Virus record (IMG/VR): IMGVR_UViG_3300023178_000006
Direction: 5' to 3' (one strand)
DNA from: a virus
Lineage: Duplodnaviria; Caudoviricetes
Length of the DNA stretch: 64,000 nt
A model generated the notes under the pieces. That model saw only the letters and a program-made list of their open reading frames with translations, was not told where the DNA came from and did no database searches. Position 1 is the stretch's first letter. The number at the start of each line of letters is the position of its first letter. Made by a program: the position numbers and the translations under genes. This document shows, in pieces, positions 5,644 to 9,668 of this stretch.

Positions 5644-6972
5644 ATGTCAAACTATCAACAACTCGTGGAAAAGTGGGAGCCAATTTTAGAGCACGACTCT
5701 TTTTCACCAATTAGCGATCAACATAGGAAAGCAGTAACAGCTACTATCCTAGAGAACACAGAAAGAGCACTTTCTGAAACAGGTGACTTGTCTGCAAACA
5801 TGACAAGCCTTCTTTCAGAAGCACCTACCAACGATGCTGGTACAGGTGGTTTCTCTGCAAGTGTATCTCCAGGAAATGCAGCAGCTGGTCCAACAGCTGG
5901 TTATGACCCTATCTTGATTTCATTAGTACGTAGAGCTATTCCTAACCTAATCGCTTACGATATCTGTGGTGTTCAGCCAATGACTGGCCCAACAGGTTTA
6001 ATCTTCGCGATGAGAGCACGTTACGGTTCTCAAGGTGGTGCGGAAGCTTTATATGCTGAAGCCGATACCGACTTTGGTGGTACTGGTACACACGCAAATA
6101 CTTTGCCAAACGCTAATACAACGCTTATTACAACTGGTACAGGTATGGACACAGCAGCGGCTGAAGCTTTAGGCGACGGTCAAGGTACAAACTTCGCAGA
6201 AATGGCATTCTCTATTGAGAAAGTTACTGTTGCTGCTAAGACACGTGCTTTAAAAGCTGAATACACAACTGAACTTGCTCAAGACTTAAGAGCAGTCCAC
6301 GGCCTAGACGCTGAAACAGAATTGGCTAACATTCTTCAATCTGAAATCTTAACAGAAATCAACCGTGAAGTTGTTAGAACAATCTACAAAACAGCTGAAG
6401 TAGGTGGTGACAATACTGCTGCTTCTGGAGTATTCGACTTAGACGTTGATGCAAACGGAAGATGGTCAGTTGAGAAGTTCAAAGGCTTAATGTTCCAAAT
6501 CGAACAAGAAGCTAACGCTATCGCAAAAGGAACTCGTAGAGGGAAAGGTAACATCGTTATTTGTTCTTCAGACGTAGCTTCTGCATTGCAAATGGCTGGT
6601 GTATTGGATTACGCTCCTGCCTTAAACTCTAACTCTTTAGAAGTTGATGACACAGGTAATACTTTTGCTGGTGTTCTTAACGGAAGATTCAGAGTATACG
6701 TTGACCCATTCGCAGGCGGCAACTACTTAGTAGTTGGTTATAAGGGTTCATCTGCATTTGATGCAGGTTTATTCTACTGCCCATACGTTCCTTTACAAAT
6801 GGTTCGTGCGGTTGGTGAGAACAGCTTCCAACCAAAAATTGGATTCAAGACTCGTTACGGAATGGTTGCAAACCCATTCGCTGAAGGTGACGTTTCTAAC
6901 CAAGGTTTGGGTGCTCTTACTCAAGACGTCAACAAGTACTACAGAAAAATTAGAGTCACAAACTTATTCTAA
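5644..6972 (+). CDS. gp23: Major capsid protein
   Basis: DPILISLVRR, GVQPMTGPTGLIFAMR, KTRALKAEYT and FQPKIGFKTRYG. Confidence 0.98.
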   Translation: MSNYQQLVEKWEPILEHDSFSPISDQHRKAVTATILENTERALSETGDLSANMTSLLSEAPTNDAGTGGFSASVSPGNAAAGPTAGYDPILISLVRRAIPNLIAYDICGVQPMTGPTGLIFAMRARYGSQGGAEALYAEADTDFGGTGTHANTLPNANTTLITTGTGMDTAAAEALGDGQGTNFAEMAFSIEKVTVAAKTRALKAEYTTELAQDLRAVHGLDAETELANILQSEILTEINREVVRTIYKTAEVGGDNTAASGVFDLDVDANGRWSVEKFKGLMFQIEQEANAIAKGTRRGKGNIVICSSDVASALQMAGVLDYAPALNSNSLEVDDTGNTFAGVLNGRFRVYVDPFAGGNYLVVGYKGSSAFDAGLFYCPYVPLQMVRAVGENSFQPKIGFKTRYGMVANPFAEGDVSNQGLGALTQDVNKYYRKIRVTNLF

Positions 6973-7020
6973 TTTTAAGTACTCCATAAAAATAAGAGTA
7001 GCATTCAGCTACCGAATTTT

Positions 7021-7050
7021 AAAGGGTCTCTTTCAGGGACCCTTTTTTTT
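7021..7050 (+). terminator. Rho-independent terminator after gp23, probably bidirectional
   Basis: AAAGGGTCTC-TTTCA-GGGACCCTTT hairpin followed by a T-run; convergent ORF ends here. Confidence 0.85.
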
Positions 7051-7282
7051 ACTTTGTTTTATGCTTATCGAAATACGAACGAATCAGGAAGATTCGTGTA
7101 TAAGCTACGACTGTCATTACACAAGTCACTAGCGTTCCCAGCGTGAGTGGGTCTGTGATTCCAAACTTATCAATAAAGATATACAATAAAGACAAGTTCA
7201 ATGGATAGTTGATAAGAAGACCGGTTGCAACTTGAGTGCCGGTTTCTTTATGAATTCGTTTTGTTCTTGTAGATAATTTCAT
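7049..7282 (-). CDS. Small membrane protein
   Basis: MKLSTR...QVATGLLINYPLNL...VVAYTRIFLIR with two hydrophobic segments; the track start at 7324 lies inside the tRNA, so the start was moved to 7282. Confidence 0.65.
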   Translation of the reverse strand: MKLSTRTKRIHKETGTQVATGLLINYPLNLSLLYIFIDKFGITDPLTLGTLVTCVMTVVAYTRIFLIRSYFDKHKTK

Positions 7283-7289
7283 AATAAAT

Positions 7290-7364
7290 TGGTAGCCCGT
7301 AGGAGAATCGAACTCCTGTTGCATGGATGAAAACCATGTGTCCTAACCACTAGACGAACGGGCC
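7290..7364 (-). tRNA. tRNA-Glu (anticodon TTC) with encoded CCA
   Basis: GGCCCGT/ACGGGCT acceptor stem, D-arm TAGTGGTTAGGA, anticodon arm CATGG-TTTTCAT-CCATG, T-loop GTTCGATTC, 3' ACCA. Confidence 0.95.
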
Positions 7365-7368
7365 GGAT

Positions 7369-7422
7369 AAAAAAACGGCAATCCTTCCATATACGCCTAT
7401 CAAAGGTATGTCAAGGATTGCC
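7369..7422 (-). terminator. Terminator-like hairpin between the large ncRNA and tRNA-Glu
   Basis: GGCAATCCTT...AAGGATTGCC 10-bp stem followed by 7 T on the - strand. Confidence 0.6.
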
Positions 7423-8140
7423 TAGGTATTGAATTTCAGTGTCACAATCGTCATTTGGTCTTACTGCCGGACTACCGGGCCCGTCGACTAAACGGGGATT
7501 TCAAACTACCTTAAAATCAAAATTTGGGGGGATGGATTTGTGTTAACGTAATTCGTTAAATAGTGTAGAATTGTTAATCGTAAATCCTGTCCCTACCCCG
7601 AGCTCGAAGCCCCTATTATTGAAACTGGTATAAAATCGCAGGTACGTCTCTCAGACTAACATGGTACTCGTTAATCCCAGTCTCGGTTGGTACCTAAGTA
7701 CCATCTCTGCCTAAAGGGAATAAAGCCTGGACCGCCGTCCTGTGTCCCTCGGTTTCCTTGCGGGGAATTTGAGGTTCTTCCTTTTCCATTGCGGACCTTC
7801 CGAGGGTCTAGTACTTCATCTTGTGTTTCCGCACCTCTTTGGTCTCTACAGTATCGAGCGTTTCTTCATACATGGAGACGCTTTCCCACCTGCTCTAATG
7901 ATTTTGTTGTCACCCGTATAATTACGTACTTTCCAGTACTGGCCTTCTCATTACTCTAACCTATCCTAGCTTGCAATCTTTGGACTCGGTTAGTTTCAGC
8001 TGCCAGTCGGGCGACTTTACTTCCTACACTTAAGACCTTCACGTTTGGTAAGAACGTCCATCAATCTAATTCTCTTCGCCGAATGTGACCACTATTTCAG
8101 ACACTTTCCCTTTCCGGCGGGGAGTATTCCGTCATTATGT
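7370..8140 (-). ncRNA. Candidate large structured ncRNA (ROOL/GOLLD-like)
   Basis: No credible ORF; GC elevated (93/180 counted in 7681-7860); several tetraloop hairpins; bounded by a sigma70 promoter and a terminator-like hairpin; adjacent to a tRNA. Confidence 0.7.
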
Positions 8141-8145
8141 TAGAT

Positions 8146-8205
8146 ATTATACCACAGCTTTTTGAAATTGTCAACTGTTTTTTGCAAAAAAGTTGCACTT
8201 TTTTT
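8146..8205 (-). promoter_or_regulatory. Sigma70-type promoter with upstream A6-GTTGCAC-T7 inverted repeat
   Basis: TTGACA (8174-8169), 17-nt spacer, TATAAT (8151-8146) preceded by TGG; inverted repeat at 8186-8205. Confidence 0.9.
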
Positions 8206-8212
8206 CAAGAGC

Positions 8213-8428
8213 TTATTTTGAGTTTACGAACTCATTCAGTTCAGAAGCTACAGAAATGATATCCTGTGCTGAAACTGAGGTTGTAGGTAATGATTTCTTA
8301 TCATCAGGGTGATTGTCGTTATGATTATACGTAGCGTCAATCTTCCTTTGTAAGTTATCGTATAGTATGGATTGAGCCATACTGAGTAGGTCGGCACGTA
8401 TCTCGTACCCAGATTTTCCGTTTGACAT
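8213..8428 (-). CDS. Hypothetical protein
   Basis: MSNGKSGYEIRADLLSMAQ, with GGAGGA ribosome-binding site. Confidence 0.8.
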   Translation of the reverse strand: MSNGKSGYEIRADLLSMAQSILYDNLQRKIDATYNHNDNHPDDKKSLPTTSVSAQDIISVASELNEFVNSK

Positions 8429-8465
8429 AATTTCCTCCTTGTGTGTATGTGTGTTTATGTCTTTA

Positions 8466-8774
8466 TTAAACTGTTAGGTATTCGTTAATTCTCCTAACAG
8501 TGTCTATTTCAGTTTGTGGATTATTCCACATCCTGTTTCTTGGACTTGGATGCGGTATCTTTAAATGAGACACCTCATTCTTATCCAACCAAGTAGAAGC
8601 GATATTTCCTAAAGCAATAACTTTATCATATCGTTTTACTAAGTTAATGTCATCGTATGAGCGGTTAGTCCAATCAAATTGCCTACCTACCCACTTGATA
8701 ACTCTGTTCTTTGTTGGTGATTTTTCTGGTGTTGTTTTACCAGGCGCTTCACCTACTATAATCAAAGATTCCAT
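8466..8774 (-). CDS. Minimal uracil-DNA glycosylase superfamily-like protein
   Basis: IIVGEAPG (motif A-like), VIALG and IPHPSPRN (motif B-like) within 102 aa. Confidence 0.65.
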   Translation of the reverse strand: MESLIIVGEAPGKTTPEKSPTKNRVIKWVGRQFDWTNRSYDDINLVKRYDKVIALGNIASTWLDKNEVSHLKIPHPSPRNRMWNNPQTEIDTVRRINEYLTV

Positions 8775-8938
8775 TATATACTTATACGTTCCATTGCAGT
8801 TCTATAACCATTTTTACGAACTCCACTTTCAAACATAATTGCTTCTTTCATGAATGTGAATACGTATTCCGCTTTGAGTACGTCATCAGCATCTTTAACG
8901 ATTACTTTAAATGCATTTTCTTTCTTATTCTTCTTCAT
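8774..8938 (-). CDS. Small hypothetical protein
   Basis: MKKNKKENAFKVIVKD; start moved to 8938 to remove a long overlap with the methyltransferase. Confidence 0.55.
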   Translation of the reverse strand: MKKNKKENAFKVIVKDADDVLKAEYVFTFMKEAIMFESGVRKNGYRTAMERISI

Positions 8939-9668
8939 TATCTTTCCTCGTGATGTATAACAACCAATAAGAATGACTTGGTCTAGCATTCTTGAGTAGA
9001 TGGTCTTGCCACATGAACAATCCATCAACCTCTCCAAACTGACTTCGTGTACGTACCTCGTGACGAGGTGAATCAACGAAGTGATTCAAAAAGTTATCTC
9101 TAAAATGAAAGAAGTCCTTTAAACCACCAGGTGTTGCTTGAGTATGAACTTCAACCACCATGTGCTTAACATTGTTGAGCATATAATCAAGGTTCTCTTC
9201 TGTAAATACATCGTATTCAGCACCTTCAATATCTGCTTTAAGGTAGTCAATATAATCTATATCATACCTTTCAACGAGTTGTTTAAAAGAAATCTTATCG
9301 ATATCTTCATTAGTTGTTTCATCATGAATAGTTTTGTATACACCATCAGCAGAACCAATAATTGCATTAATAGGAAATACAATAGGGTCTGGTTCGTTCA
9401 TCATAAACTCAGATACATTATCAATAGCGCATTTGAGTAGGTGTCTGTTACCTTCAACCATGTAAACTTTAGATGCACCACCATCACATGCTAGTGCTGA
9501 GAACATACCAACACAAGCACCAAGGTCAACTACTACATCACCAGGTTGTACTTTATACCACCATTCATATTCTTTTTCTTGAAAGAATTCAGTATAAAAA
9601 ACTGATATCATCTCAGATACCAGTCCGCCCATATTCATAACTTGATTGAGCGCCTTTTTTCTAATCAT
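8925..9668 (-). CDS. FkbM-family SAM-dependent methyltransferase
   Basis: GDVVVDLGACVGMFS and IDYLKADIEGAEY. Confidence 0.85.
   Translation of the reverse strand: MIRKKALNQVMNMGGLVSEMISVFYTEFFQEKEYEWWYKVQPGDVVVDLGACVGMFSALACDGGASKVYMVEGNRHLLKCAIDNVSEFMMNEPDPIVFPINAIIGSADGVYKTIHDETTNEDIDKISFKQLVERYDIDYIDYLKADIEGAEYDVFTEENLDYMLNNVKHMVVEVHTQATPGGLKDFFHFRDNFLNHFVDSPRHEVRTRSQFGEVDGLFMWQDHLLKNARPSHSYWLLYITRKDNEEE

Follow-up and report, generated by a model that had tools for sequence, protein, structure and literature searches.

On the minus strand of a 64,000-nucleotide viral sequence from the IMG/VR database (record IMGVR_UViG_3300023178_000006, Caudoviricetes; the entire stretch is referred to here as the window), approximately 770 nucleotides (nt; 8139–7369) separate an early promoter from a terminal hairpin followed by a tRNA-Glu gene, and no credible open reading frame (ORF) is found in between. 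The interval had been proposed, from the sequence alone, to encode a single structured non-coding RNA (ncRNA) of about 750 nt akin to the ROOL or GOLLD RNAs. Based on comparison with related loci, it is very probably a stand-alone gene for an uncatalogued large structured ncRNA of uncultured marine T4-like phages, fused in the window to two further RNA modules and the tRNA-Glu. That a structured, promoter-driven ncRNA gene lies beside tRNA-Glu in a T4-like phage was thus correctly recognized, and the evidence favors the proposed fallback of a new class.

The transcription unit begins at a sigma70-type early promoter (TTGACA-17-TG-TATAAT, 8174–8146) which, as predicted, is a consensus promoter (12 of 12 matches) and places the inferred transcription start at approximately 8140–8138. 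The promoter is of the same type as the other early promoters of the phage, lies directly before the conserved 5' end of the core RNA described below, and is unchanged in all 14 homologues of the first alignment. The promoter-plus-upstream part of the family profile gave five more minus-strand matches in the window (12222–12150, 26875–26788, 27305–27232, 25897–25817 and 11516–11450), and the phage thus appears to reuse one early-promoter architecture comprising an AT-rich upstream tract, TTGACA, 17 nt and TATAAT. The GC content is 51.7% in 7681–7860, where about 52% had been noted, and 45% over the whole RNA, compared to 36.0% for the window; the purine content of the sense strand is 57%. The interval ends in a terminator-like hairpin (GGCAAUCCUU/AAGGAUUGCC; 10-base-pair stem, 26-nt loop) followed by U7 (7422–7369; ΔG −20 kcal/mol, z −4.05), and among relatives the stem covaries and the loop (7412–7387) is conserved. 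A TTGACA sequence is found inside this loop (7414–7409), with no acceptable −10 element; the loop may have a role at the RNA level or act as a weak promoter for tRNA-Glu. The tRNA-Glu (anticodon UUC; 7364–7290) adjoins the 3' side of the hairpin at a distance of 4 nt from the U7, and the last gene of the unit encodes a 77-amino-acid (aa) predicted membrane protein with a weak match to DUF7220 and phrog_4276 (7282–7049), after which a bidirectional terminator (7021–7045) is shared with the gene for gp23.

Comparison across loci indicates that the 7369–8139 interval is a composite of three separable modules and not a single RNA of ~750 nt, the core and the two 3' modules each having their own distribution. 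The core (8139–7636, ~505 nt in the window) comprises two domains and is supported by nhmmer and blastn homology, by covariation and by contigs from RNA libraries. It is present in every family member, with a length of 410–489 nt in the relatives and 410–505 nt overall. In four variants (L124, L142, L159 and L169) a GC hairpin with U9 and then a fresh promoter come immediately after the core, showing that the core is a complete transcription unit alone, and in other relatives, as in the window, transcription can continue through modules ii and iii to the hairpin-U7 and tRNA-Glu.

Module ii (7613–7526) is a hairpin set in an outer helix (GGGGUAGGGAcaGGA / UCCaUCCCCCC). The inner 10-base-pair hairpin (7577–7568 with 7554–7543) carries a conserved 13-nt loop (UACACUAUUUAAC, 7567–7555), which is kept in L085, L113, L175 and L182 while the stem is exchanged throughout, some subfamilies having AUCUC-AAAGA/UCUUU-AA-GAGAU in place of UUAAC-AAUUC/GAAUU-AC-GUUAA. 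The outer helix (GGGG.../...CCCC) is optional and covaries (GGGA/UCCC versus GCGG/CCGC), and the module is found both with and without the core. Module iii (7512–7423) comprises three hairpins in a closing stem with an invariant AAUGACGAUUGUGA, is ~90–110 nt long, and is distributed separately from the core and linked to tRNA-Glu, which lies within ~10 nt downstream in most loci reaching that far. Twelve of 17 pairs are compensated in an RNAalifold analysis of 10 diverse copies, and no match to module iii was found in Rfam. The module occurs in core-less viral contigs (L213:5218–5307, L221:2186–2277, L233:222–311, L209:4551–4642 and L202:4332–4421) and also in the core-less L076–78. Judged by the 77-aa ORF downstream, these last three are nearest to the window, and they have kept modules ii and iii and tRNA-Glu; a 58-aa ORF stands at the core's place (L078:3250–3990, ORF at L078 3482–3658; also in L076 and L077), and compared to the window it looks as if an RNA gene and a gene for a small protein had been swapped as cassettes.

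A helix between GGUCUUA (8037–8031) and UAAGACC (7463–7457), suggested to close about 580 nt as one unit, was not borne out. The two strands are complementary in the window only; in relatives the 8037–8031 side forms the 3' strand of P3 (AGAUU/GGUCU in the window, GAGUC/GGCUC elsewhere), L084 and L089 keep UAAGACC without a partner, and the core-only and many other members have no 3' side altogether. As the relatives do not conserve the pairing, the match is attributed to chance, and with its 3' side so often missing the interval resolves into three separable modules. Of the features observed in the original prediction, the promoter, gene-free interval, GC content, hairpins and tRNA-Glu hence stand, and the 580-nt helix and the single-RNA picture do not.

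Relatives were reached through the neighboring genes, which led to IMG/VR contigs, two of them with a shorter homologue and the same promoter, and two conserved blocks of the first homologue alignment were used to recruit further loci. A 19-nt 5' end was common to 13 of the 14 sequences then in hand and had not been used in any prior search; the window's own 19-mer deviates from the consensus at several positions. Scanning with this motif yielded 40 IMG/VR and 66 metagenome loci, all of marine, estuarine or salt-marsh origin, and using nhmmer the full RNA was found in 98 loci, representing 54 distinct variants in nine subfamilies. The window encodes a member of subfamily A, with 83–89% sequence identity over 584–587 nt and a diverged first ~180 nt, and shares with the family an early promoter directly before a 5' end that pairs ~240 nt downstream (P1). 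A blastn comparison of the RNA of the window and two relatives to 50,697 isolate phage records returned tRNA-Glu matches only, and the 5' motif was found in none of 185,579 prokaryote genomes, which leaves no clue to a host or prophage. An exact 25-mer of the window had no match in IMG/VR, and none of four motif strings of the family turned up in the full text of the papers searched. By these searches, the family is uncatalogued and so far found only in uncultured marine T4-like phages.

The fold of the core was deduced from several lines of comparison, as RNAalifold on plain MAFFT alignments recovered it in part only and misalignments of 1–5 columns foiled a helix search bound to fixed alignment columns; therefore each subfamily was folded separately, complementarity was compared in cis and in trans, and two covariance models were built. 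When the separate subfamily folds were overlaid, ~18 helices were found at matching positions in two domains. The 5' domain is closed by P1 (8137–8132 with 7901–7896), a long-range helix in which the 5' UAUUGA pairs with UCAAUA ~260 alignment columns on (~240 nt in the window), and which in the window alone is compensated to UAAUGA/UCAUUA. The 3' domain is closed by P6, a long composite helix (7893–7875 with 7650–7638). Other elements include the P5a hairpin (GUACU-GGAA-AGUAC with a GNRA-type loop, 7939–7926), supported by covariation, and a P9–P13 sub-domain (7787–7670) containing CC-GCAA-GG and GGUAC-UUAG-GUACC (7702–7689). The loops of the core are of GNRA (GGAA, GCAA, GAAA) and UUCG types, and the junctions and several loops are highly conserved. 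The hairpins highlighted in the original prediction (7939–7926, 7702–7689, CC-GCAA-GG and CCCGU...ACGGG) are all present, and homologues keep them by compensatory changes.

RNAalifold applied to 55 cores predicted 40 pairs, 23 of them compensated, including P1 and the helix closing the 3' domain. In a test tolerating alignment slips, own-strand complementarity was compared with that of strands swapped between haplotypes, and native pairing was favored in every helix. P12 exists in five versions (UAUC/GAUA, UCUC/GAGA, UCCC/GGGA, CUCC/GGAG and CUUC/GAAG), P5a and P7 in 13 and 11 stem variants, respectively, and P6 in three unrelated complementary versions (GACUG/CAGUC, GCAGGUG/UACCUGC and GGUGGUACU/GGUACCACC). 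Covariance model R1, covering P4-P5-P5a and based on 18 short forms that are nearly identical (effective number 1.15), matched 54 of 59 sources, with 97.7% of cells paired (76.9% when shuffled) and a covariation score of 0.574 (0.178 when shuffled; slid controls ≤0.111); in its alignment all four P5a pairs vary on both sides across the family with 100% of cells paired. Model R2, covering P9–P13, matched all 59 sources once each, with 94.8% of cells paired (72.8% when shuffled), a covariation score of 0.515 (0.171 when shuffled; slid controls ≤0.104) and both-side changes in 26 of 29 pairs; its match in the window (7670–7787) scores 36.2 bits (E 1.2e-5). For both models 0 of 500 shuffles reached the observed score, a test which relatedness among the sequences inflates; the slid controls and the count of distinct pair types, however, have no ready alternative explanation. 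The collection of homologues thus yielded 54 variants with strong covariation and no conserved reading frame.

The P2a hairpin (alignment columns 36–60) carries a loop palindrome that differs by subfamily (UGCA, ACGU, CGCG, UCGCGA). The palindromes contain GC and are flanked by A's, and are found in five of eight loop types compared to 1.4 expected; by hand count, six of six true P2a loops are palindromic. Such switching between palindromes is the pattern of kissing-loop dimer sites and is a hint of self-association. The loop of module ii and the P2a-like loop of the window are complementary over 8 nt, but this was rejected as chance, since the match is found in the window only and ~4–5 such pairs are expected in 770 nt.

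Sequences from environmental RNA libraries also map to the core. Eight metatranscriptomic runs from different salt-marsh studies contained 57–68% of the sampled words of the stretch, and eleven DNA runs contained 82–94%. When contigs were mapped to 6600–9000, RNA run X12 gave a 495-nt contig on 7703–8197 and X16 a 429-nt contig on 7703–8131, with none from either on 8220–8381, 8463–9000 or 7005–7247; in a DNA run all bins of the same region were evenly covered (~70–110 in most). In X12, X14 and X16 the depth drops steeply 3' of ~7650, which corresponds to the core end. The contig pattern fits an abundant core-sized transcript. An adapter-tagged contig end at 7647 was considered as a true RNA end and rejected, as it falls inside the 3' strand of P6.

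Taken together, the stand-alone ncRNA gene would be transcribed by the host polymerase early in infection, and its product would accumulate as a stable, compactly folded particle acting in trans on a host or phage macromolecule. The action would be through shape and not antisense pairing, considering that no long conserved single strand suited to antisense and no partner gene are found, and the target would most plausibly lie in tRNA or translation biology; we consider the chances of such a shape-dependent, trans-acting particle to be roughly even. About the same weight can be given to the idea, suggested by analogy, that module iii serves tRNA-Glu as a companion or leader RNA and that both are cut from one precursor. 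In ROOL, GOLLD and OLE, kissing loops join the molecules of the assembly (Kretsch et al. 2025, PMC12286853), and self-association of the core through palindromic hairpin loops in the same manner is conceivable, albeit rather unlikely. The more elaborate idea that the core is a third kind of self-assembling phage RNA, one with a separate origin in marine T4-like phages, forming an RNA-only dimer or closed multimer by kissing loops and GNRA contacts with the 3' modules tethering or delivering tRNA-Glu, is unlikely and should be regarded as speculative.

Several observations weigh against a stand-alone structured RNA with such a role. With the neighboring 71-aa gene as query, 73 loci were found, nearly all without the RNA, which makes the RNA dispensable as most related phages with this gene do without it, and since no isolate phage carries the core, its function, true ends and stability have all been deduced indirectly. 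The narrow model R1 gives no match in the window, although the window keeps the three helices of the R1 region (GCCCG/CGGGU, CUGGC/GCCAG and GUACU/AGUAC) and is 83–89% identical to family members that R1 does match. Alignments fitted to a covariance model lean towards the structure of that model, and the fold of the whole interval is modestly better than those of shuffled sequences (z −2.1). The palindromic-loop signature is missing in subfamily B and in the window's own P2a-like hairpin (8103–8084), and the palindromes of the window (UUGCAA, 7976–7971; AGUACU, 7815–7810) sit in other loops. RNA run X14 contains a 992-nt contig (7647–8617) extending from the core across two upstream ORFs, and the RNA evidence consists of assembled contigs, from which strand, ends and level cannot be read.

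Among the alternatives, the RNA could be a subunit, guide or decoy of a protein, either in a phage or host ribonucleoprotein (RNP) or as a sponge for a host defense or RNA-binding factor. The phage is T4-like, with genes for tail, portal, prohead and gp23 proteins upstream of the RNA. The best isolate matches of its gp23, from Sinorhizobium and Stenotrophomonas phages, have ~65% protein identity, and partial nucleotide matches at 73% were found to Pelagibacter and Methylophilales phages, with no close cultured relative; a proteobacterial host is accordingly a guess only. The RNA lies at the end of a minus-strand cassette of small early genes converging on gp23, an arrangement that is syntenic in at least 27 loci, and an early promoter within such a variable cassette is typical of the place of counter-defense genes. 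The RNA is also present or absent among close relatives, and precedents exist in OLE, which acts as an RNP, and in GOLLD, which has been reported to bind ribosomes (PMC12286853). The neighbors in the window encode the 71-aa protein, a truncated uracil-DNA glycosylase (UDG)-like protein, an FkbM-type methyltransferase and a phrog_624 DNA-binding protein. The second of these is a 102-aa ORF (8774–8466, minus strand) with GEAPG near the N-terminus and HPSPRN near the C-terminus, of which residues 49–96 alone match Pfam UDG (PF03167, E 1.3e-5); since the match is confined to the C-terminal part and the profile, with 141 positions, exceeds the ORF in length, the product is apparently a shortened UDG-like protein. 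In subfamily C, a hemC gene follows right after the RNA terminator (L058:4812–5651, plus strand; same in L050); the L058 HemC is a porphobilinogen deaminase (PF01379, E 1.6e-56), an auxiliary metabolic gene product whose cluster is found in 22 of 55 loci. Against a protein partner, no conserved protein gene tracks the RNA among the loci compared, the small upstream ORFs that the loci share are in most cases found where the RNA is missing, and Pfam and PHROG annotation of the neighbors revealed no reverse transcriptase, nuclease or Cas-like proteins. We regard a role with a protein or ribosome partner as less probable than not.

The core could instead be a ribozyme, processing itself or acting on other RNA such as tRNA precursors. 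Like large ribozymes, it is built of two closed domains, has loops of the GNRA and UUCG types and keeps many nucleotides of its junctions invariant, and the fall of RNA-library coverage between ~7650 and 7570, near the core end, would also suit a catalytic RNA. This drop is, however, contig-based and may be an assembly effect, no ribozyme family was matched (group I, group II, RNase P and small self-cleavers), and the 3' end of core-only members arises from an ordinary terminator, making catalysis improbable.

Alternatively, the whole interval could belong to the tRNA-Glu operon as its long 5' leader or as a precursor, serving only as a cis-acting processing or attenuation element without an independent product. 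The promoter, RNA, tRNA-Glu and small ORF indeed form one unit in the window, with the hairpin-U7 just before the tRNA, and module iii stays beside tRNA-Glu also where the core is missing. For the core this explanation is very doubtful: tRNA genes occur within the locus in 16 of 55 variants and a tRNA lies downstream of the core in only 11 of the 55, several cores end in a terminator of their own before a new promoter, and RNA-library coverage lies on the core and is far lower on modules ii and iii. A leader function is plausible for module iii only.

Kinship to ROOL or GOLLD, as originally predicted, would make the core a divergent version of one of these RNAs forming the same cage. The kind of context is the same, i.e. 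a large ornate fold in a phage with an adjoining tRNA. However, when the whole 64-kb window was compared to Rfam 15 (4,227 models) at gathering score, only the tRNA was found, and with lax filters (E≤10) the 7250–8300 region gave the tRNA and a chance microRNA match only. Five other family members likewise gave nothing relevant at E≤10, neither ROOL nor GOLLD, and the covariance models for group I/II introns, RNase P, transfer-messenger RNA, 6S, OLE, HEARO and raiA had no match in the Rfam scans. The suggested resemblance of the 7954–7926 segment to ROOL found no support, and the helices and motifs, which were derived from scratch, matched nothing. A hidden ROOL or GOLLD is thus highly improbable. 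Some members contain ORFs of up to 107 aa, mostly antisense, but the idea that chance hairpins arose in a decayed protein gene or in the remnant of a mobile element is scarcely credible, since all 55 cores have at least two stops in each of the six frames with no frame conserved, gap lengths are not in threes (526/275/279 for remainders 1/0/2), no Pfam or PHROG matches were found, and change proceeds by base-pair compensation and not by codon position. The 90-aa antisense ORF at 7687–7959 similarly had no Pfam or PHROG match, and such open antisense frames can be explained by the purine-rich sense strand.

Large intricately folded non-coding RNAs are rare, and those that are understood are ribozymes, cores of RNPs or, as recently found, RNA-only cages. 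The present family adds a well-populated class, with 54 distinct sequences, ~18 helices that covary and a record in environmental RNA libraries, and it comes from abundant uncultured marine T4-like phages, whereas ROOL stems from Gram-positive and rumen sources. The core occurs alone, with the conserved-loop hairpin or with the tRNA-Glu-linked module, a modularity that bears on why large phage RNAs adjoin tRNA genes, and at 410–505 nt the core is small enough for its structure to be studied directly.

In phage T4, the tRNA region encodes two stable RNAs known as species 1 and 2 (rnaC/rnaD; ~120–140 nt), which are not tRNAs but are transcribed together with the tRNA genes, starting at an early promoter, and are released by cleavage of the common precursor. 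Likewise originating from a T4-like phage, they are the best analogue for module iii together with tRNA-Glu; the core differs from them in its size of 410–505 nt and in usually having no tRNA beside it, and the likeness is one of description only. A survey of IMG/VR reported 8,495 unnamed candidate structured RNAs with covariation evidence (Fremin et al. 2023, PMC10690425). No large RNA adjoining tRNA genes in marine T4-like phages is named in its text, and pieces of the core RNA could be among the candidates.

ROOL and GOLLD are phage or prophage RNAs, often located near tRNA islands, which assemble into an octameric and a 14-mer RNA-only cage, respectively (Kretsch et al. 2025, PMC12286853). 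Like ROOL, the core is phage-encoded, several hundred nt long and rich in covarying helices and conserved junctions, with no partner protein gene, and the window RNA shares the location near tRNA genes. In contrast to ROOL, which is found in phages and prophages of Firmicutes or the rumen, the core stems from marine T4-like phages, and it differs in sequence motifs and helix layout as well as in having no covariance-model match. The first GOLLD members were found in lake and marine metagenomes (PMC12286853), and the likeness to GOLLD includes the marine origin of some members, the position beside tRNAs in a phage and a modular build with a conserved and a variable part. The core is, however, approximately half the size of GOLLD and has no match to its model, including the universally conserved 3' region of GOLLD, and the conserved part of the core includes the very 5' end, with the 3' modules as variable additions. 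Judged by the Rfam tests the core appears unrelated to ROOL and GOLLD, but it is an RNA of the same general kind.

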